Source: Candidatus Tayloriibacteriota bacterium | Lineage (GTDB): Bacteria; Patescibacteriota; Minisyncoccia; Phycocordibacterales; CAIRYW01 | Assembly: GCA_028286725.1 (NCBI GenBank) | Contig: JAQBQZ010000005.1 | Coordinates: 1-50,448, forward strand | Direction: 5' to 3' | DNA: 50,448 nucleotides | Shown here: positions 7,961 to 36,853 of the stretch, one piece after another | How the letters are laid out: each line of letters starts with the position of its first letter | How positions within the stretch are numbered: the first letter of the stretch is position 1 | Program-made: the position numbers and the translations under genes | The notes under the pieces: model-generated | What the model was told of the DNA's origin: nothing | Database searches by the model: none | The model's input: only the letters and a program-made list of their open reading frames with translations

Positions 7961-7973
7961 TTACACTAAATAT

Positions 7974-8444
7974 ATGCGAAGAAAACTAAAAGCAAAGCCA
8001 GTTATAAGACCAGACATTCAGTACAAATCTGAAAAAGTTTCAAAGTTTGCTAACTACATAATGGAAAGCGGAAAGAAGCGAGCGGCTCAGAAGATTGTAT
8101 TCGAAGCACTCGATGCTATCAAAGAGAAAATGCAGGTAGAAAACCCTCTTGAGATCTTTGAATCAGCTCTCAAAAACACAGGTCCGCTTATGGAAGTGCG
8201 ATCAAGACGAGTTGGAGGTGCTAACTATCAAGTTCCACGAGAAGTTCGGGCAGAAAGAAAGAACTTCCTTGCTATGAAATGGATCATTGAAGCTGCACGA
8301 GGAAAGAAAGGTCAGCCAATGCACTTGAAGCTCGCAGAAGAATTGATGCTTGCTCACAAGAATGAAGGTGAAGCTGTAAGAAAGAGAGAAAACACTCACA
8401 AGATGGCAGAGGCAAACAAAGCGTTTGCACACTTCGCTTGGTAA
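7974..8444 (+). CDS. rpsG: 30S ribosomal protein S7
   Basis: SRRVGGANYQVP, HKMAEANKAFAHF. Confidence 0.98.
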   Translation: MRRKLKAKPVIRPDIQYKSEKVSKFANYIMESGKKRAAQKIVFEALDAIKEKMQVENPLEIFESALKNTGPLMEVRSRRVGGANYQVPREVRAERKNFLAMKWIIEAARGKKGQPMHLKLAEELMLAHKNEGEAVRKRENTHKMAEANKAFAHFAW

Positions 8445-8463
8445 TTTCAATCAAAAACTAAAC

Positions 8464-8497
8464 AAAAAGAGCGACGCCTATGGCGTCGCTCTTTTTG
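8464..8497. terminator. Bidirectional terminator after rpsG
   Basis: AAAAAGAGCGACGCC-tat-GGCGTCGCTCTTTTT. Confidence 0.8.
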
Positions 8498-8526
8498 TTG
8501 ATTTTGGTAATAAAAAATCGCAAGAA

Positions 8527-8859
8527 TTACTTGCGATGTGGACGAACAGTTTTTCTCTTAGATTTTTTTCCGGCATTTCGAAGCCATGCAGGAGCCTCAA
8601 CGTATCTTTTTCTTGGTGTTGTGAGCCAGTCCATCCAAGAAAGATAATTGCCTGTATCTTCTCTATCTTCTGATCTGACGATGTGGCTTCCTTCCACCCT
8701 CCAGGGAGGATTTCTCTTCCAGCGAGCTTTCTTCCTTGCCCAGGTCTCGTTTCGGTGAGGAGATACGGGCCTAGGAGGTATAGGTCGACTGAACGATCCT
8801 GGGGTTTCGAAGAGGGTTGCGATACGTATCCGCCCTTGCTGACTAAGTGGAGTTCTCAT
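8527..8859 (-). CDS. Hypothetical basic, Arg/Pro/Trp-rich protein
   Basis: 110-aa ORF ending at the bidirectional terminator, with a divergent AT-rich upstream region. Confidence 0.45.
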   Translation of the reverse strand: MRTPLSQQGRIRIATLFETPGSFSRPIPPRPVSPHRNETWARKKARWKRNPPWRVEGSHIVRSEDREDTGNYLSWMDWLTTPRKRYVEAPAWLRNAGKKSKRKTVRPHRK

Positions 8860-9025
8860 AATTCTATTTTCATCGTATCATGTCATACTAAGGTATTCCA
8901 CTTTCTTTTGTGGACATCTATAGATAATAGTGTATACTAGTAATTAAGTTATCTCTCGGAGGTATTTAAGGCTAAGTCTTTATATATTGAGGTAGGGGTA
9001 ATAATTAGTATTAAGCAAATATATA

Positions 9026-9319
9026 ATGGCAAAAAAATTATATGTCGGAGGACTCTCATACAGTACTAACGACGCAGGATTACGAGCAGCGTTTGAGAAA
9101 ATAGGAGCAGTTACATCTGCAACTGTTATTATCGACAGAATGTCAGGACGATCAAAGGGATTTGGTTTCGTTGAAATGGCTAACGACGCGGAAGCGGAGT
9201 CAGCTATCTCAGAATACGATGGCAAGGAACTTGATGGCCGAAAGGTTACTGTGAACGAAGCTCGACCTATGGAAGAACGACCACCTCGACGAGATGGAGG
9301 TTTCTCTCCACGACGATAA
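9026..9319 (+). CDS. RRM-domain RNA-binding protein
   Basis: RNP2 LYVGGL, RNP1 KGFGFVEM, GRKVTVNEARP. Confidence 0.93.
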   Translation: MAKKLYVGGLSYSTNDAGLRAAFEKIGAVTSATVIIDRMSGRSKGFGFVEMANDAEAESAISEYDGKELDGRKVTVNEARPMEERPPRRDGGFSPRR

Positions 9320-9351
9320 TCCAATAAAAGCGCAAGCTTTTTAGGAAAATC

Positions 9352-9387
9352 AAAAAAGCACCGCCTCGAAAGAGGCAGTGCTTTTTG
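9352..9387 (+). terminator. Intrinsic terminator
   Basis: AAAAAGCACCGCCTC-gaaa-GAGGCAGTGCTTTTT. Confidence 0.75.
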
Positions 9388-9489
9388 TATTGCATTTATC
9401 GACTTTTTAATGTATTCTCTGTACCAAGAAGGTCCTCCTTCGCTTTTTAATTTGTATTAAAAATATTTATAATTTTATTTAAGTAATAT

Positions 9490-11634
9490 ATGAACAGAGA
9501 CTATCCATTAGAAAAGATTCGAAACTTCGGTATCATCGCTCACATCGATGCAGGAAAGACAACAACATCAGAAAGAATTCTGTACTACACAGGTATGTCA
9601 CACAAGATCGGTGAGGTGCACGACGGAGAGGCGACTACTGACTGGATGGAACAGGAAAAAGAGCGAGGTATCACAATTACTGCGGCTGCTATTACTTGTT
9701 TCTGGAATCCTACATATATGGGTGAGGACAAGTCTCTCATGCACCGATTCAACATTATCGATACACCAGGACACGTGGACTTTACAGTGGAGGTAGAGCG
9801 ATCTCTTAAAGTATTGGACGGTGGAGTTGTGGTATTCGACGGAGTGGCTGGAGTAGAGCCACAGTCAGAAACAGTATGGAGACAGGCTGACAAATATAGT
9901 GTTCCTCGAGTTTGTTTCATCAATAAACTTGATAGAATGGGAGCTTCTTTTGAAAGAAGCTTTGCTTCTATCGTTGAGCGACTCAACAAAAATGCTGTAC
10001 GAATGCAGATCCCTATGGGTGTTGAAGAAAATCACAATGGTGTGATCGACCTTTTGAAAATGAAGGCGTACTACTTCGAAGGAGATATGGGTATGACAAT
10101 CAAAGAAGCAGAAATCCCAGCAGAATATCTTGAAGAAGCAAAAAAATTCCGAGCAATGCTTGTAGAAAAAGTTGCTGAATTTGATGAGAAGCTCATGAAT
10201 GATTTTCTTGAGGAAAAAGAACTTTCTATTGAAGATCTTAAAAAAACTATCCGAAAGGCAACTATTGCAAACGCACTTTATCCAGTATTTACAGGATCAG
10301 CTTTGAAGAACAAGGGAGTACAGCTTGTACTTGATGCTGTGGTTGAATACCTCCCATCACCTCTTGATATTCCACCAGTAACAGGACTTGATCCTGAAAC
10401 AGGCGAAGTTATCACACGAAAGGCATCAGATGAAGAACCTTTCGCTGCACTCGCATTCAAACTTCAGACAGATCCATTCGTAGGGCAGCTTACATTCTTC
10501 CGAGTGTATTCTGGAACTATTGAGGCAGGATCATACATCTACAACTCAACAACTGGAAACAAAGAACGACTTGGGCGAATCGTACGACTTCAGGCTAACA
10601 AGCGTGAAGAAGTAAAGAAGGTTTTTGCGGGAGAGATCGCAGCTGCGGTAGGACTCAAGGAAGCAAAAACTTCACATACATTCTGTGATGAAACACATCC
10701 AATAATTCTAGATCCAATTAAATTCGCAGACTCAGTGGTGTCACTTCGAATTGAACCTAAAACAAAAGCAGATCAAGAAAAAATGGGTGTTGCACTCAAG
10801 AAACTCGCTGATGAGGATCCAACATTCCGTATTTCTTCAAACCCAGAAACTGGAGAAACTTTGATCGCTGGTATGGGTGAGCTACATCTTGAAATCATGA
10901 TCGACCGAATGAAGAGAGAATTCGGTGTTGAAGCTAATGTTGGTAAACCACAGGTAGCATACAAAGAAACTATTACGACTGAAGCTGAAGCTGAATACAA
11001 ATATGTTAAGCAGTCTGGAGGTAAAGGACAGTACGGTCACGTTGTGCTCACACTTCGACCACTTAAGCCTCTTGAAGAAGGAGAGAAAGTGTCTAAGAAT
11101 ACTCATCGAGAAGAAGGATTTGAATTCACCAACTCTATTAAGGGAGGTGTTATTCCAAACGAATTTATTCCAGCTGTTGAGAAGGGTGTACACGAAGCGA
11201 TGGATCGAGGTATCGTTGCTGGATTTAAGATGGTGGATGTCTCTTGTGAACTTACATTCGGTTCATCACACGATGTGGACTCATCAGAAATCGCCTTTAA
11301 GATCGCTGGTTCTCAGGCATTTCAGGAAGCTGCACGACGTGCAAAGCCTGTTATCCTTGAACCAGTAATGAAAGTTGAAGTGGTAACTCCTGAGAAATTC
11401 ATGGGAGATGTAACTGGAAACTTGAGTTCAAAGCGAGCTCAGATCCTTTCTATGGGAGACCGAGGGCAGAACAAAGTTGTTGCTGCGATGGTTCCTCTTT
11501 CAGAAATGTTCGGTTACGTTACAGCACTCCGATCACTTACGGAAGGACGAGCTTCATCAACAATGGAATTCGATCATTACGAAATCGTACCACCAAACGT
11601 CGAGAAACAGATTCAAGAGAATAAAACGAAGTAG
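9490..11634 (+). CDS. fusA: Elongation factor G
   Basis: [35 protein letters not shown]. Confidence 0.98.
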
Positions 11635-11703
11635 AGATAGATTGGAAAGTAGAAATCAAAGATTAAAAATAAATGCACCTCGGCGTAGCCGCGGTGCATT
11701 TTG
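11634..11703 (+). repeat. Degenerate heptamer array followed by an intrinsic terminator
   Basis: gagatag|attggaa|agtagaa|atcaaag|attaaaa|ataaatg, then AAATGCACC..GGTGCATTTT. Confidence 0.5.
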
Positions 11704-11724
11704 TATTAGTGTTATACTTCCTGC

Positions 11725-12300
11725 ATGAATGACTGGCATCAAGTTGTGGGGACTATGGGAGGATTGATTGCGTTTTTTTCTATCATTCCCTACATTAAAG
11801 ATATCCTACATGGGACTACAAGACCGAATGTTGTCTCATACATACTCTGGTGTATTTTGCTTTCCATATCTGTCTTTGCACAATATAGCTCAGGTGCATC
11901 ATGGACGATTCTGCTTGTTGGAGCAGATCTTGCTGCCGCACTCATGGTTATATTATTTTGTTTTACAGGATATGGCTACAAAAAATATGGACCTTTAGAA
12001 ATCATTTGTTTTACACTCGCGATAATTGCGATTGTTTTGTGGCAAGTCACCAATAATCCTCTTCTTGCTATTATCTTTTCACTCATTGCAGATATCTTGG
12101 CTGGAATTCCTACTATAGTGAAAACATACCGTGATCCAAAATCAGAATTACCATTGGGGTGGTTTATGGTGGCTTTTGGAGCACTATTGAGTCTTATTTC
12201 AAATACTATTTTTGATTTACCAAACCTTCTTTTTCCGGTATGGATACTGATTGTGAATACTCTTATTGGTTTTTTGGCATTAAGAAGAGTTTCTAAGTAA
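11725..12300 (+). CDS. Multi-pass membrane protein (PQ-loop/SWEET-like duplicated architecture)
   Basis: Two repeats IPYIKDILHG..P and IPTIVKTYRDP..E; about 6-7 TM segments. Confidence 0.65.
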   Translation: MNDWHQVVGTMGGLIAFFSIIPYIKDILHGTTRPNVVSYILWCILLSISVFAQYSSGASWTILLVGADLAAALMVILFCFTGYGYKKYGPLEIICFTLAIIAIVLWQVTNNPLLAIIFSLIADILAGIPTIVKTYRDPKSELPLGWFMVAFGALLSLISNTIFDLPNLLFPVWILIVNTLIGFLALRRVSK

Positions 12301-12351
12301 TTGATATACTTCTTTATATTAATGTGAGGTCATGATAGTATCGTGGTGGCT

Positions 12352-12543
12352 ATGAATAACGACGATTCCGAACCTTCCGAACAGTGGTCTAACAGTCAGG
12401 GTCCTTCGAAGATAATTAAAGTTGCATTGCTGGGGATGTTGGTAATCCTCATTATTGTTGCAGTCTTAATCTGTGCCTCTGGGTGGCAGATCAAAGATGT
12501 GTTTGATTGTCTCAAGGATTTTAGTTGGTACACATACCCGTAG
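12352..12543 (+). CDS. Small single-TM hypothetical protein
   Basis: One hydrophobic segment; followed by a terminator-like hairpin with T tract. Confidence 0.5.
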   Translation: MNNDDSEPSEQWSNSQGPSKIIKVALLGMLVILIIVAVLICASGWQIKDVFDCLKDFSWYTYP

Positions 12544-12590
12544 CATTCATGCTCGGGGTTTTTTATTTATGCTATACTTTCGCCACATAC

Positions 12591-13502
12591 ATGAATCTCT
12601 TTATCAAAAAATATTCTCCTCTCCTCGTTTTCTTGGCTGCGATGCTCTGGGCAACTGATGCGCCGTTTCGAGTGTATTTGACAAAAGATCTTTCAAGTAA
12701 TTTTATTGTACTTGTTGAGCACTTTATAAACCTTATTTTTGTATTACCGCTCCTTTTTGTTTCTCGAGAATCAATTAAAAAGCTTACTCTTAAAGACTGG
12801 ATTCCAGTTCTTATTATTGGTGTTGGTGGTTCTGCGCTCGCATCTATTGCATTCACCCAGGCGTTTCATTATGTGAATCCATCTGTGGCTATACTTCTCC
12901 AAAAACTCCAACCTGTCATTGCGATTCTTCTTGCGGGAACAATACTTAAAGAGAAAATGCCAAAGAGATTTTGGGCTTGGGCATTCATTGCACTTCTTGG
13001 TGCATATGTTATTTCTTTCCCGAGCCTTATTCCTCGACTTTATGATGGGGAAGTGTTCAATCCGAATACTATCGGGGTATTGTATGCGCTTCTCGCGGCG
13101 CTCCTTTGGGGAGCATCAACAGTCTTTGGTAAATATGTTTTAAATACCGTAACGTTCGAAGCGATGACGGCACTCAGGTTTAGTGTTGCTTTCGTATTCC
13201 TTCTTGGTCTCAACTTCTCGACCGGAGAGTTGAGCGAGATAGGGCTTCTATCAACGACTGATATTCTTTATCTTATTATCATTGGTATTGTCTCAGGTGC
13301 AATGTCACTTCTTCTATACTATAGAGGACTCCAATACACTAAAGCATCGATTGCAACCTTGGCTGAGCTCGGGTTTGTCTTTGCGTCACTTCTCATAAAC
13401 ACTCTCTTTTTAGGTACAAATCTTGCTTTGATGCAGATGGCCGGTATCGTTCTTCTTCTTATGGCGGTACTCAGTCTCGTAAGAGTAAACAGGGAGGAGT
13501 AA
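12591..13502 (+). CDS. DMT/EamA-family transporter
   Basis: Ten hydrophobic helices, AAMLWAT, LQPVIAILLAGTILKEK, AALLWG. ATG 12591. Confidence 0.9.
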   Translation: MNLFIKKYSPLLVFLAAMLWATDAPFRVYLTKDLSSNFIVLVEHFINLIFVLPLLFVSRESIKKLTLKDWIPVLIIGVGGSALASIAFTQAFHYVNPSVAILLQKLQPVIAILLAGTILKEKMPKRFWAWAFIALLGAYVISFPSLIPRLYDGEVFNPNTIGVLYALLAALLWGASTVFGKYVLNTVTFEAMTALRFSVAFVFLLGLNFSTGELSEIGLLSTTDILYLIIIGIVSGAMSLLLYYRGLQYTKASIATLAELGFVFASLLINTLFLGTNLALMQMAGIVLLLMAVLSLVRVNREE

Positions 13503-13702
13503 TTGTTGACATATAATTTCTCTGTGATAATATTGCTCCTAACGCGTTTGCGTGTTTTTTGTTTGAAAGAGCAATAACATTGCAAATCTAGCGCAATTAT
13601 CAAATCGTTTTTAAGTTACTTCTCTTAAATGGCTTCTCGCGCATTTTGGAGAGGATAATTAAAGACACCCGCCGAAAGGCGTTTAATCTATATAAAATAT
13701 AT

Positions 13703-14893
13703 ATGGCTGAAGCATTTAATCGTTCAAAACCACACGTAAACGTAGGTACTATTGGACACGTTGACCACGGAAAGACTACTCTTACCGCGGCTATTCTTAA
13801 TGTACTCTCACGATCAGGACAGAACGTGAAGCTCAAGGCTGTTGATCAGATCGACAACGCTCCTGAGGAAAAAGCTCGAGGTATTACTATTAACCTCTCA
13901 CACAACGAGTATGAGACAGCTAATAGACACTACGCTCACATTGATGCTCCAGGTCACGCCGACTACATCAAGAACATGATTACTGGTGCAGCTCAGATGG
14001 ACGGTGCTATTCTCGTTATCGCAGCTACAGACGGTGTTATGCCACAGACTCGAGAGCACGTTCTTCTTGCTAAGCAGGTTGGAGTGCCAAAGATCATCGT
14101 TTTCCTTAACAAGTGTGATATGGTGCCTGATACAGAGCTCATTGACCTCGTTGAAGAAGAAGTGCGAGATCTTCTTGCATCACAAGGATATGACCGAGAT
14201 TGTCCAGTTATCCGAGGTTCAGGACTCAAAGCTCTTGAAGCGACAGGTATTGATGATGAATGGTCTAAGAAAGTACTTGAGCTCGCTGACGCACTCGATA
14301 CTTACATCCCTATGCCAATTCGAGAAACTGATAAGCCTTTCCTTATGCCTGTAGAAGATATCTTCTCAATTGAAGGACGAGGAACAGTGGTTACAGGACG
14401 AATCGAGCGAGGTACAGTAAAGATCGGTGAAGAAATCGAAGTTGTTGGTATCAAAGATACTCAGAAGACTACTGTTACTGGTATTGAAATGTTCAACAAG
14501 CAGCTTAACGAAGGCATGGCAGGAGATAACGCCGGTATTCTTGTTCGAGGTCTTAAGAAAGAAGACATCACACGAGGACAGGTTCTTGCTAAGCCAGGAT
14601 CAGTGAAGCCTCATACAGAATTCGAAGGAGAAGTATACATCCTCAAGAAGGAAGAAGGAGGACGACACACACCATTCTTCACAGGTTACAAGCCACAGTT
14701 CTACATCCGAACAACTGACGTTACTGGAGAAGTAGCACTCAACGCTGGAGTAGAAATGGTTATGCCTGGAGATACAGTAACATTCAACGTAAAGTTGGTT
14801 GCCCCTGTAGCTCTTGAAGACCAGACACGATTTGCTATTCGAGAAGGAGGCAAGACTGTAGGTGCGGGAGTTGTAACAAAGATCGTAAAATAA
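13703..14893 (+). CDS. tuf: Elongation factor Tu
   Basis: [31 protein letters not shown] 13703. Confidence 0.98.
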
Positions 14894-16910: not shown

Positions 16911-17753
16911 ATGAAAACTTACAAACCATACACTAAATCAAGACGAAATACTGTAACGATCAACTATCGTGACCTTCTTTCGGGCGACAAGCCAGAGAAA
17001 TCTCTCGTAGGAGGATTTACTCGAGCAATGGGACGAAACAACCGAGGACGAATCACTACTCGACATAAGGGAGGAGGAAACAAAAGACTCTATCGAGATG
17101 TTGACTTTGTTTATGACAAAAAAGACATCGAAGCGAAGATTGTTTCTGTTGAATACGATCCAAACCGATCAGGATTTATCGGACTTGCAGTCTATAAGGA
17201 CGGTGAGAAGCGATATGTACTCGTTCCAAAATCAATGAAGCCTGGAGATGCATTTATCGTGAGTGAAAGTGCTCCTGCAACTGTAGGAAACCGACTCGCA
17301 CTCAAGAATATTCCTGTAGGAACATTCGTATACAACGTTGAAATGAAGCTTTCAGGTGGTGCAAAGCTTGCACGATCTGCAGGTAACTTCGTAGAAGTTA
17401 TCGCTCAAGACCTCGGGTACACACTTCTTAAACTTCCTTCAACAGAAGTTCGAAAGGTGAAGGATACATGTTTCGCTTCAGTTGGACTCGTATCAAACGA
17501 CGAACATCACCTTGTGAAGTTCGGAAAGGCTGGACGAAGTCGATGGAGAGGAATCCGACCAACTGTTCGAGGTACAGCCATGAACCCCGTAGACCACCCA
17601 CACGGAGGAGGTGAAGGGCGACAGGGGCGAGGACGACGACGAGCTATCTCTATCTATGGTAAACCAACAGGTAAGGGGCAGAAATCTCGAAAACCAAAAA
17701 AGTACTCAAACAAGCATATTGTTACACGACGAAAAGTTGGAAAGCAGAGATAA
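16911..17753 (+). CDS. rplB: 50S ribosomal protein L2
   Basis: EYDPNRS, RPTVRGTAMNPVDHPHGGGEG. Confidence 0.98.
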   Translation: MKTYKPYTKSRRNTVTINYRDLLSGDKPEKSLVGGFTRAMGRNNRGRITTRHKGGGNKRLYRDVDFVYDKKDIEAKIVSVEYDPNRSGFIGLAVYKDGEKRYVLVPKSMKPGDAFIVSESAPATVGNRLALKNIPVGTFVYNVEMKLSGGAKLARSAGNFVEVIAQDLGYTLLKLPSTEVRKVKDTCFASVGLVSNDEHHLVKFGKAGRSRWRGIRPTVRGTAMNPVDHPHGGGEGRQGRGRRRAISIYGKPTGKGQKSRKPKKYSNKHIVTRRKVGKQR

Positions 17754-17772
17754 TCTTAAAACAGAATTTAAA

Positions 17773-17811
17773 ACAAAATGCACCGTGCCTTTGGGCGCGG
17801 TGCATTTTGTT
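17773..17811 (+). terminator. Intrinsic terminator after rplB
   Basis: ACAAAATGCACCGTGCC-ttt-GGGCGCGGTGCATTTTGTTT. Confidence 0.8.
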
Positions 17812-17838
17812 TGTTATTCTGCTATTCTATTAATAATA

Positions 17839-18381
17839 ATGATCAAACTAAAACAAGTCTCATATGAGGATGTTATCGAATTTTTTACAAAGGAACACCC
17901 TATCGATCTCGAGTCACCGCATTTCGCAGGGAATAAGTGGGGGAGATTGCATCTGGATCAAGCTAACAAAGAACTAGGGGGTCTCTGGGCACTTTGTGAA
18001 TTGGAAGTTGATGATATTTTGAGCCTTGTAATTCCATTTCATGCTGCAGAGCAGGGCGATTCAATTCTTGTTGAAGAAAGCGGTCTTGTTGTAATTGGTG
18101 CAATCGATAAGTTGAAAAATTCTCTTCCAGAATATGCTGAAAAAAATCCTGTTTGTTGGGCGAAAATAATGTATTGGAAAGAGAAGGATTTTTCTCCTCT
18201 TTTTCTCTCTACGGCACCTGCGACTCAAGGAAGAAGAAGTCATACAGATCCTTCTTTAGGCACTTTGTTTCATCTAGACGGCCTACATCGCCTTATGAGA
18301 TGGGGTATGGACGGACGCTTTGAGAGTGAGAATTATGCCAAAGGTCCAAAGCTCACGGCCTATGTTGCAGGCTTTAAGTAA
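17839..18381 (+). CDS. Hypothetical protein with a ParB/Srx-like DGxHR motif, inserted in the S10 operon
   Basis: LFHLDGLHRL. ATG 17839 follows the rplB terminator. Confidence 0.6.
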   Translation: MIKLKQVSYEDVIEFFTKEHPIDLESPHFAGNKWGRLHLDQANKELGGLWALCELEVDDILSLVIPFHAAEQGDSILVEESGLVVIGAIDKLKNSLPEYAEKNPVCWAKIMYWKEKDFSPLFLSTAPATQGRRSHTDPSLGTLFHLDGLHRLMRWGMDGRFESENYAKGPKLTAYVAGFK

Positions 18382-18471
18382 ATCCACTTTAACCATTTGA
18401 CATTATTCTAATTTTTGATAGTATATCCCCTATGCTCCTTTGGAGCTATTTTTGATACAAACTTAAAACAA

Positions 18472-18813
18472 ATGACACGATCACTAAAAAAAGGACCTTT
18501 CGTAGAAGCATATCTCTTGAAAAAAATCGAGGGAAAAAGACCATCAGAAACTGGTGTTATTAAGACTTGGTCTAGACGAAGTCAGATCACTCCTGAAATG
18601 GTAGGGTTCACTTTTGGTGTTCACAACGGAAAGGTTCATACTGAAGTTTTTGCTACAGAAGATATGGTAGGTCACCGACTTGGAGAATTCTCACCAACAC
18701 GAAAGTTCACACGACACGGAGGAAAGATGCAGAAGGAGATTGACTCAGCTAAAAAGGCTGCGGAGATCGCTTCAGCTCAAACGGCAAAAGCAGCAACACC
18801 AGCTAAGAAATAA
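18472..18813 (+). CDS. rpsS: 30S ribosomal protein S19
   Basis: [29 protein letters not shown]. Own promoter TTGACA 18397 / TAGTAT. Confidence 0.97.
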
Positions 18814-21531: not shown

Positions 21532-22065
21532 ATGAAATCAATCAAAGAAATACAAAAAGACGCATACAAGACACTCAAAGAAAAATTTGGGTACAAGAAT
21601 GTTATGCAATCTCCAAAGCTTGTAAAGGTGGTGCTTTCATCTGGAACAGGTAAAGTGACAGACAAGAAGCGAAAGGAATACATTGGCGACAAACTCACAA
21701 AGATTGCTGGACAGAAATCGGCAGTTCGAGCAGCTAAGAAATCTATTTCTACTTTCAAAGTGCGACAGGGAGACAATATTGGTTTCCAGGTAACGCTTCG
21801 AGGTGAGAAGATGTTTGCATTCCTCGACAAACTCATCCACATCGCGCTTCCACGAACAAAAGACTTCCGAGGACTCAAGTCTGCATCAATTGATGGCATG
21901 GGCAACGTAACATTTGGTATCAAAGAACACACAATTTTCCCAGAATGTGCAGACGAAGATATCAAGGATACATTTAGTTTTGCTTTCACTGTTGTTGTTA
22001 CATCAAAGAAAAAAGAAGAGACAAAAGCATTCCTCGAACTCATTGGATTCCCGTTTTCTAAGTAA
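21532..22065 (+). CDS. rplE: 50S ribosomal protein L5
   Basis: PKLVKV, IAGQK, VTLRG, ALPRTKDFRG, DGMGN. Confidence 0.97.
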   Translation: MKSIKEIQKDAYKTLKEKFGYKNVMQSPKLVKVVLSSGTGKVTDKKRKEYIGDKLTKIAGQKSAVRAAKKSISTFKVRQGDNIGFQVTLRGEKMFAFLDKLIHIALPRTKDFRGLKSASIDGMGNVTFGIKEHTIFPECADEDIKDTFSFAFTVVVTSKKKEETKAFLELIGFPFSK

Positions 22066-22082
22066 AATCAAAATAGTAAAAA

Positions 22083-22120
22083 ACAAAAAGGTCCGCAGCA
22101 TAGCTGCGGACCTTTTTGTT
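22083..22120 (+). terminator. Intrinsic terminator after rplE
   Basis: ACAAAAAGGTCCGCAGC-ata-GCTGCGGACCTTTTTGT. Confidence 0.8.
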
Positions 22121-22173
22121 TATCCACATTGAATTCACTCAATTCATTTTTTTACTGTATAATTTAGCGATAA

Positions 22174-22527
22174 ATGGAACCAGCTGTTATTAATAACAAT
22201 ATTCCTAAATTTGAAACTCCGCATAGTGGGGGAGGAACAAGCAAGGTCAAATTGACTGTTATTATTCTTATAATAATTGGGGCTGTCGCTTTTAATCTTT
22301 GGTATTATTTTGGAGTTTTTTCTGCAATTCCAGTAGCGGTTGTTTCAGAAGTTGTGCTGCCTCCAGACGATAATGAGAAGACTGTGATTGCATCTGATCT
22401 GGAGAATCGGGTAGCTAAAATCAGTACTGACGATAGAGCTCAGATGATGCAAAGTCTCGCAATGAGAACTAATAGCGAGGTAAAACCAGAAGAAAGAGTC
22501 ATTGCGGTACAATCATTTCAAAATTAA
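22174..22527 (+). CDS. Hypothetical single-TM protein
   Basis: One TM segment; TATAAT just upstream. Confidence 0.65.
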   Translation: MEPAVINNNIPKFETPHSGGGTSKVKLTVIILIIIGAVAFNLWYYFGVFSAIPVAVVSEVVLPPDDNEKTVIASDLENRVAKISTDDRAQMMQSLAMRTNSEVKPEERVIAVQSFQN

Positions 22528-22548
22528 TTATCAATTTATATATTATTT

Positions 22549-23079
22549 ATGTCTAAAAAAACACTCACCGCATTCTTTATAGGTCTTATCATCGGCACAG
22601 TTTCGCTTTCATACGCATCATGGACTTCACCTACTCAGCCGGCGCCAAACGGAAACACTGCTGCGCCTATCAACGTGAGCGCTCTCTCTCAGGATAAGTT
22701 GGGAGTTCTCACTGTTGGCGGTTTGGGAGTTTTTGGTCCAGCACTCGTCACTTCGTCGGGAGGATATGCGCTTCCGTCAAATTTGCAGCTCGGTGTTAAT
22801 GGGTATGTGGGCGCAAGAGGATATTGCGATATGAATGGGCAAAACTGTGTGACAACTCTCGGAGGAACATATGTAAATGCGGTAACGAATAATGCTTCAT
22901 CAGGAAAATCTGTTGTGTGCGGAGGATGGGATATCAAATATCCTGGAAAGACACCTATCAATATGTGGGGATGTGGATCCGCATCAATTTGTCCTGCAGG
23001 ATATAGCGATATCAAAACTTCAAATCCGACTGTAAATAATGTTGAGCAGACACATCTTTGCATTGTCTCTAGTCTCTAA
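22549..23079 (+). CDS. Secreted Cys-containing fibre/adhesin-tip-like protein
   Basis: Signal peptide, WTSPTQPAPNGNTAAPINVS, YCDMNGQNC, C-terminal CPAGY..LC. Confidence 0.65.
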   Translation: MSKKTLTAFFIGLIIGTVSLSYASWTSPTQPAPNGNTAAPINVSALSQDKLGVLTVGGLGVFGPALVTSSGGYALPSNLQLGVNGYVGARGYCDMNGQNCVTTLGGTYVNAVTNNASSGKSVVCGGWDIKYPGKTPINMWGCGSASICPAGYSDIKTSNPTVNNVEQTHLCIVSSL

Positions 23080-23153
23080 TTGATAGAAATAATATTTTTG
23101 TGAAAAGGAAAAGTACCAATTCTTGCGAATTGGTACTTTTGAAAACGAGGTCG

Positions 23154-23354
23154 TTAGCGAGGCATTACTGCATGCGGGTAAACCATGGCTGTCTGGTCTG
23201 CGAGATGCGGGACTTGTCCCAATGCGTCACTTAAGACACTAAAGAGCTTTACAAGGGTGCTCTCCAACCCTTCGAAAACATCGGGCATCATAACTCTGAT
23301 GATGATCAGCGTGATACCAAATCCAATTGCGCGTAGCATATTGGTTGTGTTCAA
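23154..23354 (-). CDS. Small membrane hypothetical protein
   Basis: 66-aa ORF with TTG start. Own promoter (TTGCAA/TATAAT on the minus strand, about 23485-23516) and terminator at 23108-23141. Confidence 0.5.
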   Translation of the reverse strand: MNTTNMLRAIGFGITLIIIRVMMPDVFEGLESTLVKLFSVLSDALGQVPHLADQTAMVYPHAVMPR

Positions 23355-23412
23355 AGGGTGCTGGATAATTGTGACTGACTAGTCCACAACCATGAAGAAA
23401 TAATGTCTTCAC

Positions 23413-23467
23413 GTGCATCCCCCGCCTCTATAGTCCATACTATGGACCATAGAGGCGGGGGATGCAC
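23413..23467 (-). repeat. 55-nt GC-rich near-perfect hairpin in a 5' leader
   Basis: GTGCATCCCCCGCCTCTAT-A-GTCCATA-C-TATGGAC-C-ATAGAGGCGGGGGATGCAC. The single mismatch becomes a G-U pair on the minus strand. Confidence 0.75.
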
Positions 23468-23579
23468 CCTCTTTTTATCTGTATTATATTATACCATATT
23501 TATAAAATATTGCAATAGCATACATTTATTCCCGCATGGTCTATAATATAGTTAATTAATCACATTATCTACTTAAAAA

Positions 23580-23804
23580 ATGTTTAATCTAGAAGCAGGG
23601 TTTGGATCAAGAAATAATGAAGAACCGGGAAGAGTGCCTGAACGAGAGGTTATTGAACTTAGTAAGGAGGTAGAGCTCGATAAGGGTGTTGTTATTGAAC
23701 CTCAAACCTCAGTCTCGGATTCTATAGAGGAGGCTCCTACCTGGCCAGCAGCTGATGAAGATACTGGAAAGATTCCTGATGCTGATCTTAAGGATTGGAA
23801 CTAG
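23580..23804 (+). CDS. Small acidic hypothetical protein
   Basis: 74-aa ORF, Glu/Asp-rich, with upstream TATAAT. Confidence 0.55.
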   Translation: MFNLEAGFGSRNNEEPGRVPEREVIELSKEVELDKGVVIEPQTSVSDSIEEAPTWPAADEDTGKIPDADLKDWN

Positions 23805-23821
23805 GGTAGATATTTTTCCTG

Positions 23822-23955
23822 TTGACATTCACTATAGACCCTGCTAATATAGACAAATCAAGCTCATTTGAGCTTTTTGTTTTACTTGTAAGTGGTAGAT
23901 TACTTTGGTTTGGCTTTAGTATGCTAAAACCTACATCAAATCTTCCATACTGCAA
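23822..23955 (+). promoter_or_regulatory. sigma70 promoter plus a leader hairpin mimicking the 16S rRNA S8-binding site
   Basis: TTGACA(23822)-17 bp-TAATAT; helix TTGTAAGTGGTAGAT(23886-23900)/ATCTTCCATACTGCAA(23940-23955). Confidence 0.7.
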
Positions 23956-23987
23956 AATAGAACGCTAATACTAAAATAATTTAAGAA

Positions 23988-24173
23988 ATGGCAAAAACAT
24001 CAGTAATTGCAAGGTCAAAAAAGACACCAAAATTCAAAAGCCGCGTCGTAAGACGATGTTTTCGATGTGGACGAAAGCACGGATATATGCGAGATTTCGA
24101 TCTCTGCCGAATCTGCTTCCGAGAATTAGCAAACGAAGGAATGATTCCTGGTATCAAAAAATCATCATGGTAA
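23988..24173 (+). CDS. rpsN: 30S ribosomal protein S14 (zinc-binding type Z)
   Basis: [26 protein letters not shown]. Confidence 0.97.
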
Positions 24174-30856: not shown

Positions 30857-33800
30857 ATGCGACTTGTATTCCGCACAATTTTCTTTGTTGTTTTCTCACT
30901 GATTTTTATATCAAAGCCTCTTGTTGCCGACGCCTCTATTGCGACAGAAACTGCCAAAAATATTGGAATATTTTATGCAAACTCGACTATCTCTCTTGCC
31001 GACAAGACAGGTGAGAAAATTTCTGGAGTAAAAGATTTTTATACTCCACTTTTTGTACATACCAGAGAGGATCTTAAAGGGATCTTCGATGGGGCATTTA
31101 TGGTTTCTAATACTGCGCTCAATTCTGTGATCGGTTTGGGAAGGGGAGTTCTCGATACGAGTGCATACCAGATTCAACATACTGGAGAAAATGTTGGAAG
31201 TGTTGTCGCATCTGCAGGTTCTGTACTCGATGATGTGAATAATGTTCTTTTTACAAAAACACCGGAGGTTATTTCAAAGGCAGATATTGCTAAAGTGGAA
31301 GTTACAATACAGGCTGAAGCTACTCCTGACACAAGCGTGTCGACCAAAAAAACAATTTCAGTTGAGAATTTTGCAAGTGCACAAAATGCGATTCACTTTG
31401 CTCTCCCGAGTGCGGAGGATCTTGGAAGTAAAGTTTTGAATGTATATCAAAATATTGGTAATGCGTTTTTGGATTCTGTCGCACACAATACGAATGAAAC
31501 AGTTTCTTCTTGGAAAGGTATGATCGACAAAACGAGAAATGTGGTCGCTGTAGTGAACAGCAACATCAACGAGGCGACAAACGCTCTCGGCAATGTGGGA
31601 TATATCGGAACTAAAAATGTTTTAGATGGTGGAATAGTCATTGGAAATGGAGTATTGAAAACAAGTGAAAAAGTTATTACAAAAACAGGAGATGTGGTTG
31701 CGAGTGCATTTGTTGGCACCAACAATCTTTTACACAACTCAAAGAATGTTTTGTTGGGTTCTGTGACATCTCTAACAGGGTCTTTGACACAGAGTAAAAA
31801 TAATTCCGTTGCGGGAGTTGGTGCGATCTGGGATTTTATAATTGACAAGATCTCAGCGCCTCTTGTGCCTCTCTTTTTCAATTCTTCAAACTCAGATGAG
31901 ACTTCGATAAATGTCATCGACTCAAAAAGTGGTACTGTTCAAAACGGTGTGGCAAATAACCAAAATTCAATAGCTGTAATAAAAAATAGTACAGGAAATA
32001 ATTCTGTCATTGAAAGGCTTGTTAGTAAAAACTCTTATTTCACTATTGATAATTCCGCAGAAATAAACAAATTGCGAGCTGAGATGATCACGCTCAATAC
32101 AAATACGATAAATTATCTCACTGATCGAATTGCGCTTCAGGGATACCACAGTGTGGGTGGTATATCAAATACGATCAATAATATTATCCAAAATGGAACT
32201 GGTACAAGTAACGCGATAAGTATCGATGCTTCAGGAGGGACAACAGGATTTTCATTTTCAGGGGGACCGATCACTTCATCTGGAACATTCACACTAGGGG
32301 GCATACTTAATATTGCAAATGGTGGCACCGGAACTTCGACGCTGCCTATCTATGGAAAGGTTTTGATCGGCAATGCGAATGGATCTTATGATCTTGTCGC
32401 AACATCAACGCTTGGTCTTGGAGGAAGTGGCGGGACAGTAACAAGTGTCGATCTTTCTGTGCCAACAGGGCTCACTGTTTCAGGTGGTCCTGTTACAACT
32501 TCGGGAACATTCGCACTCGGTCTTCAAAGTGGATACACGATCCCGCTTCTCGCATCAACGACAGAGTGGAATTCTGCATATTCAAATCGAATCACATCAG
32601 CATCAAGTCCACTTTCAATTGCGAACAATGTTATCTCACTTTCAACAGGCGGAGATTGGGCAGGAACTTTGGATGGGCAAAGCGGAAGCTATTACACGAA
32701 TGCCAATAATCTCACAAATTTTGGCACACCTTTTTATTCGTACTTCCACGCAACAACAACTGATGCACTTGCGCAAGGTTCTACAAACAAATATTATTCT
32801 TCGGCTCTTTTTGCAAACGATCTTACTGCAACAACATCACTCTCACATATTCAAACACTTGGGGGACTTAGTTCTTTTGGAATATCGGGGGCGACAACAA
32901 CTTCAACAGGAAATTTAAATGTTGCAGGAAACATTAATTTCAACGGTTCATTCCTCCAAAACGGCTCTCCATTTGTCGGAAGTCAGTGGAATACAAATGG
33001 ATCTGATATTTCATATTCTGCGGGGAATGTAGGAATTGGGACATCTACCCCTTCGGCAAAATTAGCAATTACTGGTAGTAGTTCAGGAGATGTGTTTACT
33101 GCCGCCTCTTCTTTTAATGCCCCTTTGTTTACAATTGGAAATACAGGGGTTGTCAAAGTTGCTGCTGTCAATTCAGCAGCAGGATCAATACAAGGACTTG
33201 ATAATTCAAGTTCTGGAATTGGCATATCGAGCGGAAATTTTAATTTTGGAAATTATGCCTACATAGTAGGAACACAAAACACTTTCAGAGTAAATTCGAA
33301 TCTTGCTTTCGGCTTTAGTACTGATATATTTAATAATACAAACGATGTCGCTGTATCTAGAATCTCATCTGGTGTTCTTGGTATTGGCACTGGTTTGGCG
33401 GGGAATAGTTCTGGCACATTGCTTGCAGGCAACATTGGAATCGGTACAACAACTCCGTGGAAGAATCTTTCAGTCGTAGGTGACATGGTTCTCACTGGAG
33501 GATTCTATGATTCACTTTCATCATCTGGTACAAACGGCATGGTACTTCAATCTACTGGATCAGCCACAAAATGGGTGGCAACAAGTACGCTTGGTCTTTC
33601 GTCAACACTTACTGGAACTACCGGTCAATTTGCATATTTTAGTGGGACTAATAATGCGGTGGGCACTTCGTCAATCTTTATTTCAACAGTAGGGAATGTA
33701 GGGATTGGCACAACGAATCCTAGTGGAAAGCTCGATGTTCAAGGAGGTTATACATACTTGAATGGTCTAAGAATTTCAGGATCTGACAACACAAACACCA

Positions 33801-36800
33801 TCTACCAACCTTCAGGAGCAATTGGAATCACTGCAGGAGGCGGAGGTCAAGGATTATTCGTAACAGCTAGTGGTGCAAGTTATGCGAACGGTGCTTTTGG
33901 TGCTGGAACAGCTTCGCCTGGGTATGCCTTACATGTAAGACCACTTGCAACTGATAAATATGGATTATATATCGATGGACTGTCAGCTCAAACTGCAAAT
34001 CTTGCGCAATTTAATGTCTCTGGCGTTCAAAAAGCTTACATCGATAAAGATGGAGGGGCATATTTTGGTGGCAATGTAAGTGTAGGTACAACAACTCCTT
34101 GGGGCCAGCTCTCAGTAAACCCCAACGGCATCACAGGACCATCATTCGTTGTTGGATCTTCAACTGCAACGAACTTTATTGTGACAAATGGAGGGAATGT
34201 GGGGGTAGGAACAGCAAATCCGACTCAAATGTTTGATGTCTTGGTGCCAACAAATGCCGATAAAGGATTTACATTCAGGTCAGGATCAGGGACTATTTTG
34301 ACTGGTACTAATGGATCATCTGGAAATTATGGCTTAACTTTAGCAAATGGCTTGGTGGCGATTGATAATTTTTATGGTCTCAGAATGACGAGTGGAAGTC
34401 TTCCAATTCAAGGTTTGGATAGCTCAGCAACTATTGCTCGCGATCTTTCAATTAGAGGAAAAACTCTGGAATTTAAAACTGGTAATAGTGGTTCTGCGTT
34501 TCCAAATACAGCTATGACAATAGATGTTAATGGTAATGTTGGTGTAGGTTCTACAACTCCTTGGGGTCAATTCTCTGTAAATCCAAACGGTATCACCGGC
34601 CCTTCATTTGTCGTCGGTTCTTCGACAGCGACGCAGTTTGTTGTATCAAATGGGGGAAATGTGGGAATTAACACTGCAGCCCCATCTTCAACATACAAGC
34701 TTGATATAAATGGTGGAGCGCGAATAACAACTGGAAATAGTCTTATTGTTGATACAGTATCTCCAAATGCGGGTGCGAATCTTACTCTTATTGCAGGGTC
34801 TTCTAACCGCGCTTACTTTGGAGGTAGTGGTGTGTTTGGTGGACAGCTCACAGCTGCTACCGGAGAACTTGGGATATCTGGTACGACTGTGCTTCGGTGG
34901 ACCAATGATGCAACATCATACGGTACGGCTGATATTGGATTTTCTCGAGGAGCTTCAGGAAAATTATATTTAGGTAACGGTACAGCAAGTGATTACACAG
35001 GAACGCTTATTGCGGGAAATATTGGTATCGGCACAACAACTCCTTGGGCTCAGCTCTCAGTAAATTCAAATGGAATTACAGGTCCTTCATTTGCTATCGG
35101 CTCTTCAACTGCAACAAGCTTTATTGTGACAAATGGAGGATATGTGGGAATTGGAACTTCTGCTCCAACTCGAAACTTTGTTGTTACCAATAATATTGCT
35201 GGCGCAGGTACGATATCCATTAGTCCAGGTGATCCAACATTAAGTACGGCAATTGGGGCTACTGTAATGCGAACAAATTCTACTGGTAATTTCGATTTTG
35301 ATAACCCAAAGACTATTAATTTTAACTTCAATACTGGAGATAATACTGGCGCAACCAGAAAATTCACCATAAATTATGGATCGGCCCAAACTAATGCATT
35401 AACGGTAGTTGGTGGCGTCGACCAAGCGAATGCAGGGTTTGTTGGTGTAGGTTCTACAACTCCTTGGGGTCAGTTCTCAATAAACCCAAATGGAATAACA
35501 GGGCCATCATTTGCAATCGGTTCATCAACGGCAACACAATTCATTGTGACAAATGGGGGATATGTTGGAATCGGAACCTCAACGCCAAACAACACACTTT
35601 CTGTAGTAGGTGCGGGGTATTTTACAACGGGGCTTTCAGTTGGAGGATCAAATGCGACGACTACTGGCACGCGAGTGTCCATGACACCTGGAACTTTCTC
35701 TTTATACAACAGTAGTGATACAAGCGCGAGATTAAGCCTCTCGCCTGGTGGAAGCGGTAGTTTGCCTAATGGTGTTCCTGGGATTGTTGTAAATTCGCAA
35801 AGTGGCGCTGGCAGTGCAAACTTGTATGGGGCAGCCATTGCTCAAAATGGTACACAAAATACTCTCTCTTTCTATGTCTCCAATGGCACGACGCTCATGA
35901 CCGAGCGTGCGAGGTTTGATAGTAATGGAAACTTTGGTATCGGAACAACTTCACCTCTTGCGCGCCTTGATGTTGTTGGTATTAACAACGGCACGTCACC
36001 GCTCTTTCAAGTTTCAAGTCTCGCTTCTTTTGCAACAACAACGAGATTTCTTATAGACTCAAGTGGAAATATAGGAATCGGAACTTCAACTCCAGCATTT
36101 CCACTTGATGTATATAGTACTGTGAACTCAACTCAAACATACGGATTTTTGAATGCGAGTGGAGTGGTTGGTACTGCAGGTCCAGGATCAAATGGTTATT
36201 CTATTCGTGCGCAAGGAAGAATTATGGCGCCAGAATTTAATGCAGTGTCGGACGCTCGTTTGAAGAATGTGAATTTTGAGCTTACTTCAGATGTGGCATT
36301 GGGAGCTCTTTTGAAACTTCAGCCTGTATCATTTAATTGGAAAAATGAACCAAATGGTCAACCTATTTTAGGTTTCCTTGCTCAAGATGTTGAAACTGTT
36401 ATTCCAAATGCAGTATCGAAAATAGCAACAGAAAATTTTGCAGATCAAAGAATGCTTGATTACAACCAGATTACGGCTGTGATGGTAGGAGCGGTTAAGG
36501 AGATCAAGATCGAGCTTGATGCTTTGAGTCAAAAGATCTCAAGTATGATGCCATGGTTTGTTGACGGTAAGTTCAAGGTCCAAAGTGACGTTTGTGTTGA
36601 TGACGTTTGTGTGACAAAGCAGCAATTCAAGCAAATGCTTTTGAACAGCGGTGCATCACATACGACAGTAAGTGTTCCAAATCCAAATAATACTTCAACC
36701 ACCACAGAATCCACATCAACAACAACTGAGTCAACTTCTACAACTACTCCGCCAAATGAAGATGTAAATACTCCTGTAGAAACTCCATCAGAACCAATAC

Positions 36801-36853
36801 CTGAACCTGCTTCAGCAGATGCGGCTCCGGCACCAGAGACTATAACCCCTTAA
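30857..36853 (+). CDS. Giant secreted fibre/adhesin-like protein with GNVGIGT repeats and a C-terminal peptidase S74 intramolecular chaperone domain
   Basis: Signal peptide; many G(N/Y)(V/I)GIGT(T/S)xP units; SDARLK..LQPVSFNWK..GFLAQDV..LDYNQI; Thr/Pro/Glu-rich tail. Confidence 0.85.
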   Translation: MRLVFRTIFFVVFSLIFISKPLVADASIATETAKNIGIFYANSTISLADKTGEKISGVKDFYTPLFVHTREDLKGIFDGAFMVSNTALNSVIGLGRGVLDTSAYQIQHTGENVGSVVASAGSVLDDVNNVLFTKTPEVISKADIAKVEVTIQAEATPDTSVSTKKTISVENFASAQNAIHFALPSAEDLGSKVLNVYQNIGNAFLDSVAHNTNETVSSWKGMIDKTRNVVAVVNSNINEATNALGNVGYIGTKNVLDGGIVIGNGVLKTSEKVITKTGDVVASAFVGTNNLLHNSKNVLLGSVTSLTGSLTQSKNNSVAGVGAIWDFIIDKISAPLVPLFFNSSNSDETSINVIDSKSGTVQNGVANNQNSIAVIKNSTGNNSVIERLVSKNSYFTIDNSAEINKLRAEMITLNTNTINYLTDRIALQGYHSVGGISNTINNIIQNGTGTSNAISIDASGGTTGFSFSGGPITSSGTFTLGGILNIANGGTGTSTLPIYGKVLIGNANGSYDLVATSTLGLGGSGGTVTSVDLSVPTGLTVSGGPVTTSGTFALGLQSGYTIPLLASTTEWNSAYSNRITSASSPLSIANNVISLSTGGDWAGTLDGQSGSYYTNANNLTNFGTPFYSYFHATTTDALAQGSTNKYYSSALFANDLTATTSLSHIQTLGGLSSFGISGATTTSTGNLNVAGNINFNGSFLQNGSPFVGSQWNTNGSDISYSAGNVGIGTSTPSAKLAITGSSSGDVFTAASSFNAPLFTIGNTGVVKVAAVNSAAGSIQGLDNSSSGIGISSGNFNFGNYAYIVGTQNTFRVNSNLAFGFSTDIFNNTNDVAVSRISSGVLGIGTGLAGNSSGTLLAGNIGIGTTTPWKNLSVVGDMVLTGGFYDSLSSSGTNGMVLQSTGSATKWVATSTLGLSSTLTGTTGQFAYFSGTNNAVGTSSIFISTVGNVGIGTTNPSGKLDVQGGYTYLNGLRISGSDNTNTIYQPSGAIGITAGGGGQGLFVTASGASYANGAFGAGTASPGYALHVRPLATDKYGLYIDGLSAQTANLAQFNVSGVQKAYIDKDGGAYFGGNVSVGTTTPWGQLSVNPNGITGPSFVVGSSTATNFIVTNGGNVGVGTANPTQMFDVLVPTNADKGFTFRSGSGTILTGTNGSSGNYGLTLANGLVAIDNFYGLRMTSGSLPIQGLDSSATIARDLSIRGKTLEFKTGNSGSAFPNTAMTIDVNGNVGVGSTTPWGQFSVNPNGITGPSFVVGSSTATQFVVSNGGNVGINTAAPSSTYKLDINGGARITTGNSLIVDTVSPNAGANLTLIAGSSNRAYFGGSGVFGGQLTAATGELGISGTTVLRWTNDATSYGTADIGFSRGASGKLYLGNGTASDYTGTLIAGNIGIGTTTPWAQLSVNSNGITGPSFAIGSSTATSFIVTNGGYVGIGTSAPTRNFVVTNNIAGAGTISISPGDPTLSTAIGATVMRTNSTGNFDFDNPKTINFNFNTGDNTGATRKFTINYGSAQTNALTVVGGVDQANAGFVGVGSTTPWGQFSINPNGITGPSFAIGSSTATQFIVTNGGYVGIGTSTPNNTLSVVGAGYFTTGLSVGGSNATTTGTRVSMTPGTFSLYNSSDTSARLSLSPGGSGSLPNGVPGIVVNSQSGAGSANLYGAAIAQNGTQNTLSFYVSNGTTLMTERARFDSNGNFGIGTTSPLARLDVVGINNGTSPLFQVSSLASFATTTRFLIDSSGNIGIGTSTPAFPLDVYSTVNSTQTYGFLNASGVVGTAGPGSNGYSIRAQGRIMAPEFNAVSDARLKNVNFELTSDVALGALLKLQPVSFNWKNEPNGQPILGFLAQDVETVIPNAVSKIATENFADQRMLDYNQITAVMVGAVKEIKIELDALSQKISSMMPWFVDGKFKVQSDVCVDDVCVTKQQFKQMLLNSGASHTTVSVPNPNNTSTTTESTSTTTESTSTTTPPNEDVNTPVETPSEPIPEPASADAAPAPETITP
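34070..35585 (+). repeat. Four copies of a conserved ~45-aa module separated by unrelated inserts
   Basis: TTPWGQ(L/F)SVNPNGITGPSF(V/A)(V/I)GSSTAT.F.V.NGG at about 34070, 34532, 35015 and 35440. Confidence 0.85.

Follow-up and report, generated by a model that had tools for sequence, protein, structure and literature searches.

A putative S8-binding leader upstream of the rpsN-rpsH operon in one genus of Patescibacteria

The rpsN locus and its transcription unit

The window (the whole stretch of DNA that was analysed, 50,448 nucleotides) is contig C7 of a 906-kb genome in 14 contigs, and it carries the str-S10-spc ribosomal-protein cluster with several insertions. The features of the region around rpsN are listed in Table 1. 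A previous sequence-only reading had stated that the spc operon is cut after rplE, that rpsN has its own promoter (TTGACA-17-TAATAT), and that rpsN and rpsH overlap as ATGGTAA; our study confirms these three observations. The cut consists of the terminator-like hairpin that follows rplE and of approximately 1.9 kb with small ORFs, which separates this hairpin from the rpsN promoter. None of the four small ORFs scanned in this insertion has a Pfam match. The ORFs of the insertion (22174-23804) have 117 aa, 176 aa, 66 aa (minus strand), and 74 aa (acidic); those of 117 and 176 aa are also present upstream of rpsN in another genome of the genus (G005), and a perfect long hairpin lies inside the insertion at approximately 23413-23466. 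Downstream of rpsH come rplF, rplR, rpsE, rplO, and secY, preceded by gaps of 12, 19, 10, 23, and 43 nt, respectively, with no rpmD between rpsE and rplO. The rpsN product is presumably the zinc-binding short form of S14, as suggested by the two Cys-x-x-Cys pairs in its translation.

Table 1. Features identified at the rplE-rpsN-rpsH locus (window coordinates).
Feature	Position	Strand	Evidence
rplE (L5), last gene of the upstream half of the spc cluster	21532..22065	+	Pfam Ribosomal_L5 + Ribosomal_L5_C
G+C-rich 19-bp palindromic hairpin between A and T runs; resembles a terminator in either orientation; landmark of the operon cut downstream of rplE	22081..22121	.	hairpin/terminator scan
Promoter-like site TTGACA-17-TAATAT with TG extension; 10/12 consensus matches; arrangement kept in relatives	23822..23850	+	promoter scan, comparison
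P0, 6-bp hairpin AAGCUC-AUUU-GAGCUU (23860-23875), then U run UUUUGUUU; begins approximately at the expected transcript start; kept across the order	23860..23883	+	folds, comparison; 100% of cells paired
P1 5' strand (part of the U run), paired with 23958-23964; pairs mostly invariant, one compensatory change	23878..23884	+	folds
P2 5' strand UUGU, equivalent to 16S 591-594; paired with 23952-23955	23886..23889	+	alignment, covariation
S8-core 5' strand A-A-G-U, equivalents of A595 A596 G597 U598; invariant in 10 distinct leaders	23890..23893	+	alignment, rRNA model
P3 5' strand, paired with 23939-23946; covaries among relatives	23894..23901	+	alignment, covariation
P4 apical hairpin; 8-nt loop 23915-23922 with invariant UAGUAU (23917-23922); closing stem covaries	23907..23931	+	alignment, folds
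P3 3' strand	23939..23946	+	alignment, covariation
S8-core 3' strand A-U-A-C-U-G, equivalents of A640 U641 A642 C643 U644 G645; invariant	23947..23952	+	alignment, rRNA model
P2 3' strand, remainder CAA	23953..23955	+	alignment
P1 3' strand	23958..23964	+	folds
Invariant AAUACUA, complementary to the apical loop UAGUAU; from 14 nt (own clade) to 1-3 nt (G001, G004) before AUG	23967..23973	+	alignment, folds
rpsN (S14, 61 aa)	23988..24173	+	Pfam Ribosomal_S14
rpsH (S8); start overlaps the rpsN stop as ATGGTAA	24167..24562	+	Pfam Ribosomal_S8

The promoter and the P0 hairpin belong to a cassette that is found before rpsN across the order (loci L003-L031) and that consists of TTGACN-17-TANNNT, 4-12 nt, a hairpin of 5-9 bp, and a U run. 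Most of these cassette hairpins have AAGCUC/GAGCUU as their stem; AAGCCG/CGGCUU is an example of the compensatory variants. A strict script found promoter, hairpin, and T-run together in 19 of 30 loci across the order, with looser forms in several more. Since P0 begins 4-12 nt after the -10 hexamer and is followed by the U run, it lies where the transcript is expected to start, and it is the sole hairpin with U run of this kind in the genome. P0 is terminator-like, yet it cannot be an efficient terminator for transcripts from its own promoter; we infer that it serves as a 5'-terminal stabiliser or tuning element. RNA runs (six, at no more than 0.06 of sampled words, three of which were examined) provided only contigs of relatives that are 90-95% alike, which carry no indication of where transcripts begin or end or of their level. 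One contig of 176 nt begins at 23849, but this end is no evidence for the start of a transcript.

In this genome, GGAGG occurs 0 times at -20 to -5 of 707 long ORFs, and the 3' tail of the 16S rRNA (L001, approximately 2375-2434) is GGAAUAUUUCAAAU, which does not contain CCUCC. With no Shine-Dalgarno signal of this type, initiation must rely on the open leader beside the helix. Across the whole genome, AAAUA, AAUAC, and AUACA present a weak peak at approximately -11 to -8 before start codons.

Structure, covariation and distribution of the leader

The minimum free energy (MFE) fold of the leader (23850-24000) has -30.4 kcal/mol, with z = -2.08 and 4 of 200 shuffled sequences folding as well. 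In this fold, 23886-23890 are paired with 23951-23955 and the helix extends upward, in agreement with the long helix that had been proposed at 23886-23955, which ends 32-33 nt before the rpsN ATG. Counted from the rpsN AUG, P1, which forms the base of the helix, reaches to -24 and the 3' strand of the core to -36 in the clade of our genome; in G001 and G004, the leader structure comes within 12-14 nt of the AUG. None of the MFE folds of the ten leaders has paired bases between the helix and the AUG.

We conducted a model-guided alignment of 11 leaders, 10 of them distinct, and it is important to note that this alignment is fitted to the model and favours the structure: 90.8% of the cells of the distinct leaders form standard pairs, against 79.0% when shuffled and 32-49% when the partners are slid. 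Changes on both sides occur in 12 of 24 pairs, and the covariation score was reached by none of 500 shuffles. An independent MAFFT alignment agrees with this, at 88.7% paired and with double changes in 10 pairs. Covariation extends to the apical stem, where a G-C pair is replaced by A-U in L128. In the helix that carries the core, 10 of 15 pairs show compensatory changes, and the pairs that never vary are exactly the equivalents of A596-U644, G597-C643, and U598-A640; AAGU and AUACUG (the nine core letters and G645) are fully invariant in the 10 distinct leaders. Covarying helices that enclose an asymmetric loop of fixed sequence are typically the mark of a site bound by protein. The sequence-only reading was to be abandoned if its core were neither conserved nor covarying in relatives; what the relatives present is this invariant core within a helix of compensatory pairs, an outcome in favour of that reading. 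On this comparative evidence, we regard the leader as a real, conserved, genus-restricted RNA structure.

The apical loop UAGUAU and the downstream AAUACUA could pair with each other over 6-7 positions (duplex energy, -4.6 to -5.9 kcal/mol), and the chance that two invariant hexamers are complementary is estimated at approximately 1 in 1000. This pairing is without covariation because both of its sides are invariant, and it looks sterically strained once P1 has formed. Two other roles of the apical loop were considered and rejected: a switch fold in which it pairs with the core 3' strand lies 6-16 kcal/mol above the MFE in all ten leaders, and its origin as a copy of an rRNA segment finds no basis, as TAGTATG(C) has no rRNA occurrence in the genome.

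S8 was identified in 61 of the 61 genomes searched, ours included. Genes were mapped on 30 loci, also including our own, and the 220 nt upstream of rpsN were read in each of them. The leader is present in six of the seven other genomes of the genus (G001, G002, and G004-G007); in the remaining one (G003, locus L007) the AUG comes directly after P0 and its U run. A covariance model of the whole leader (R1) assigns 93-134 bits to the leaders of the genus and at most 23 bits to everything else. With stricter filters, R1 found three matches in 151 genomes across the order, all of them in this genus and none in the 148 genomes of other genera. In a pattern scan of the genomes of 185,579 species we obtained 68 loci, of which seven are true according to R1; six of these score as the six congeners, and were taken as the same genomes, and one (L082) is new. 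A protein-guided metagenome scan gave 14 loci, three of them with the leader, which comprise two new variants and one leader (L129) that is equal to that of L008. These results restrict the scope of the element: it is not a leader of Patescibacteria at large but is confined to one genus, and the other genera of the order have other leaders or none. A phylum-wide pattern search (AAGT..ATACTG..ATGGCNAA) matched 72 of 401 genomes, but the reversed control often matched as well, making this search uninformative. The Rfam comparison that had been recommended found no family for the leader region: Rfam 15 at gathering thresholds gave 0 matches in the window, and at E<=10 the interval 23700-24100 gave only two irrelevant minus-strand matches, with E values of 2.3 and 2.7.

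Other genera of the same family and order also present structured leaders before rpsN. Three genomes of genus g2 (L018:186-377, L020:1133-1324, and L024:1136-1324) share a different one of approximately 165 nt, in which only one of 59 predicted pairs is compensatory among the three sequences. L028 and L029 share a second leader type, and L019 likewise has a different long structured rpsN leader. It is possible that these long structured leaders of other genera are further r-leaders.

Correspondence with the S8 site of 16S helix 21

The helix 21 sequence of E. coli given in the sequence-only reading is correct against K-12 rrsH (GGTTTGTTAAGTCAGATG...CATCTGATACTGGCAAGC). The identity of the cores also holds, as the leader AAGU/AUACUG is equal to the E. 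coli helix 21 core letter for letter. The pairs of the S8 site have their equivalents in G23892-C23950 (G597-C643) and U23893-A23947 (U598-A640), together with U23948 (641) and the bulged A23949 (642). Five positions are invariant in the 37 rRNA helix 21 segments that we compared (G597, U598, A640, A642, and C643); the leader has all of them in the same geometry. In addition, A23890 with A23891-U23951 corresponds to the A,(A-U) type at 595/596/644, the commonest one (20 of 37 rRNAs). The leader thus shares with 16S helix 21 the two pairs, the bulged A642, a single additional base on either side, and a regular helix both above and below the loop; in the leader, P2 and P3 flank the core loop with 89.3% of cells paired. 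The two differ in that the upper part of helix 21 is replaced in the leader by an unrelated hairpin.

We used a covariance model (R2) built from the helix 21 segments of 36 Patescibacteria 16S genes and E. coli, with no leader included. With filters off, in the window and nine leader loci (73.6 kb), R2 produced 11 matches at E<=10, of which six are leaders in the correct register: L004 (E = 0.23), L005 (1.4), window 23881-23963 (1.5), L082 (2.4), L017 (5.8), and L006 (8.4). Our leader is the best R2 match of the window at that E value of 1.5, and R2 places 6 of the 10 leaders in their proper register. When R2 was run over the whole genome, the 16S gene alone passed E<=10. Searching the 906-kb genome for a loose descriptor, in which AAGT and ATACT are flanked by five or more pairs above and three or more below, gave two matches; 20 block-shuffled genomes contained 3.1 on average (range 1-7). 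The match of a single sequence is within chance on the scale of a genome, and it is more than chance when position and conservation are counted. The resemblance does not extend beyond the core and the helices around it; what gives it weight is its location and its mode of evolution.

Outside this genus (g1), the same tools provide no convincing S8-like core in the rpsN leaders. A strict descriptor of the S8 core had no matches outside g1 in the 30 regions; its four matches were three true g1 leaders and one unrelated place in L003, with a shuffle mean of 0.24. R2 had 13 matches with E values of 1.3-9.9 in 28 non-g1 loci, only two of which fall in leaders (two of the three g2 leaders, with E = 6.9).

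Our study also identified a difference between the leader and the rRNA of its own host. The helix 21 of this genome reads ...CUCUUAGUCAGG...CUGAAACGGGAG..., with the core UAGU/AAACG, and this core recurs in each of the 13 genomes of the order, ours included, from which the 16S region was obtained. Among the 37 rRNAs, the cores are AAGU/AAACU (13), UAGU/AAACG (10, this order), AAGU/AUACU (7), GCGU/AUACG (5), AGGU/AAACC (1), and GGGU/AAACU (1). The leader and the resident 16S agree in six of nine core positions, including the five invariant ones, and differ at 595, 641, and 644 (U595, A641, and G644 in the 16S). With these three differences, the leader does not appear to imitate the rRNA of its own host. 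The description of the element as a 16S mimic seems to hold for the general bacterial S8 core rather than for the resident helix 21, which has UAGU/AAACG. Neither the 26 other Patescibacteria 16S genes nor E. coli have this resident core, in which the bulged A and the adjacent pair seem to have changed places. Two records given as E. coli that best match a CPR helix 21 query (L171 and L172) have 16S segments unlike that of K-12 in this region and are possibly chimeric or foreign rRNA copies.

Variation at position 641 is compatible with S8 recognition. In E. coli, the rRNA has AUACUG and the mRNA operator has GAAACUG (+6 to +12 of rplE), that is, U versus A at 641; since its rRNA and its own operator differ there, variation at this position is tolerated by E. 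coli S8. According to the accessible text of PMC4176348, S8 recognition occurs largely through the shape of the backbone, and the base triple is A595-(A596-U644) in E. coli and G595-(C596-G644) in Thermus. The S8 protein of this genome is 33% identical to that of E. coli, and its S-T, Y, and GGE positions are kept and align with the E. coli RNA-contact residues named in the same accessible text (PMC4176348). As judged from its sequence, the S8 protein here is ordinary, and we infer that it could read both types of core, the resident one and that of the leader.

A proposed S8 operator and its alternatives

We propose, with a probability of roughly 0.65, that this leader is an independently evolved S8 translational operator, that is, a genus-specific autoregulatory r-leader of the rpsN-rpsH-rplF-rplR-rpsE-rplO-secY transcription unit. 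Transcription would proceed from the conserved promoter at 23822-23850, and the leader of approximately 130 nt would fold into the 5' hairpin P0 and one long irregular helix (P1-P2-core-P3-P4), whose internal loop AAGU/AUACUG would offer the recognition surface that S8 uses on 16S helix 21. S8 in excess of free 16S rRNA would bind this loop, and the bound complex would be located directly upstream of the sole unstructured A/U-rich stretch before the rpsN AUG, in an organism that lacks a Shine-Dalgarno signal. The complex could then hinder 30S loading sterically, by locking P1/P2 shut, or by favouring the pairing of UAGUAU with AAUACUA. Translation of rpsH would be co-repressed through the ATGGTAA overlap, and that of the tightly spaced downstream genes through coupling. 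The element lies within the 5' UTR of the S8-encoding unit without overlapping the AUG (24-36 nt upstream). Its base stands 24 nt and its core 36 nt before the AUG, with unpaired RNA from the helix to the AUG, and the start site is therefore not directly occluded in the manner of E. coli. Most likely, the bound complex would impede the loading of 30S subunits onto the short open A/U-rich stretch.

The alternative that survives best, although we consider it unlikely, is that the structured leader acts without S8, either as a stability or processing element (the 5' hairpin and long helix serving as a nuclease barrier or RNase III target) or as an operator for S14, L6, L18, S5, or L15, the likeness to the S8 site being coincidental. 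Several of our results are in line with this possibility: the S8 core of the host's own rRNA is unlike that of the leader, a single-sequence match is within chance genome-wide, other genera have quite different long rpsN leaders in which no clear S8-like core was found, and the invariant UAGUAU(G) loop and AAUACUA are not explained by S8. Two factors argue against it. First, an asymmetric loop that never varies and combines the five universal positions of the S8 site with the commonest 595/596/644 type, in the right geometry and before the operon of S8, is an unlikely coincidence. Second, the apical loop has no rRNA match in the genome.

Less probable still is that S8 binds the leader but controls something other than the initiation of rpsN translation, such as mRNA decay, or transcription through the terminator-like P0. 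P0 with its U run resembles an intrinsic terminator and is kept order-wide, and in our genome's clade the S8 core is far from the AUG. However, RNA polymerase has passed P0 by the time the S8 site is made, which puts P0 out of reach of S8; there is no terminator-like element 3' of the helix, and the distance of 12-14 nt between structure and AUG in G001 and G004 suits a translational block. A small-molecule riboswitch, or a DNA-level element with two opposite TAGTAT copies as -10-like hexamers, is very improbable: UAGUAU and the complement of AAUACUA both correspond to TAGTAT, the usual -10 hexamer in these genomes, and no Rfam family fits the region, but these copies have no -35-like partner and no promoter call, the compensatory changes point to RNA pairing, and our reading of the fold reveals no multi-helix junction or pocket typical of riboswitches.

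The feedback of S8 on the spc operon is a textbook case. The E. coli operator is located at the start of rplE, as the sequence-only reading had stated, in agreement with the accessible text of PMC3616713 and with the E. coli sequence. Both systems have a copy of the helix 21 core (AAGU with A-N-A-C-U-G) inside an operon that encodes S8, and in both a translational feedback that spreads by coupling is expected (PMC3616713 and PMC10931766, in their accessible portions). In contrast, the E. coli operator is a long-range pairing of +6 to +12 with +79 to +84 that spans the rplE start codon, with the strands in the opposite order (numbering as in the accessible text of PMC4176348), whereas the leader described here is a local 5'-UTR hairpin, 24-36 nt upstream of rpsN after the split of the operon, without sequence homology to the E. 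coli operator. Their distribution also differs, as the element of our study is known from one genus of Saccharibacteria-like bacteria and the E. coli-type operator from Gammaproteobacteria. R2 has no match at the rplE start of the window (21532). Considering that the element precedes rpsN and that the rplE start has no match, it is an analogue of the E. coli-type operator and not a member of that class. The sequence-only reading had described an S8 element relocated upstream of rpsN; our comparison does not support a relocation, given the local hairpin in place of the long-range pairing across the rplE start and its presence in one genus only. The differences in position and topology and the confinement to one genus argue for an independent invention.

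Narrow, lineage-specific structures that imitate rRNA before the gene of the binding protein are well known from the leaders of S15, S4, L20, and L31. The element described here resembles these other r-leaders in its narrow distribution, its position before the gene of its presumed binder, and its imitation of rRNA (accessible text of PMC7247131). The 20 r-leader candidates in the accessible text of PMC7247131 include none for rpsN, rpsH, or S8; the names rpsN and rpsH occur 0 times there, and S8 and the spc operon only in the reference list. The title of PMC3616713 indicates that most regulatory RNAs of E. coli ribosomal proteins are narrowly distributed to Gammaproteobacteria. The accessible text of a 2024 review (PMC10931766) limits established S8 control of spc to E. 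coli and, presumably, Vibrio, and states that the regulation of spc in other species "remains unknown". In the accessible portions of the literature on S8, rpsN, and rpsH leaders and on r-leaders of Patescibacteria, we found no such element. In the available text on the yeast RPS22B intron, the eukaryotic uS8 regulates its own gene via a conserved RNA structure, as proposed here, but acts on splicing.

To our knowledge, few regulators have been described in Patescibacteria. If our proposal is correct, the leader would be a second, independently evolved S8 operator, in which the same protein surface has been captured by a differently placed mRNA site, and it would provide a concrete, testable regulatory RNA for a lineage that looks untestable. 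It would also constitute a natural experiment on how far an operator is allowed to diverge from the resident rRNA site, and it would reveal a route of translational repression in a genome without Shine-Dalgarno pairing. Its scope is narrow, as it concerns one genus and the principle of rRNA mimicry is already well known.

A further scenario, which we present as tentative and with the odds clearly against it, is that the canonical-core leader was invented or acquired after the 16S core of the order had drifted, that it was inserted into the cassette as a hotspot, and that UAGUAU and AAUACUA form a repressing contact. Were this the case, the intrinsic optimum of S8 would have stayed canonical while its rRNA site drifted; the rpsN start would be a natural hotspot for the repeated invention of ribosomal-protein operators, into which other genera have inserted different long leaders; and the contact of UAGUAU with AAUACUA beside the start codon would act as a repressing one in an organism without Shine-Dalgarno pairing.

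Other particularities of the window concern the remainder of the ribosomal-protein cluster and its surroundings. An RRM-domain protein and an ORF without assigned identity lie between rpsG and fusA, and two genes lie between fusA and tuf (7421-14893), while a gap of approximately 700 nt separates rplB from rpsS (17753-18472). At 30857-36853 there is an ORF of 1998 aa with a C-terminal Peptidase_S74 (endosialidase chaperone) domain, followed on its 3' side by a homologue of the 23S-rRNA-intervening-sequence protein and then by a HerA/TraG-like ATPase.
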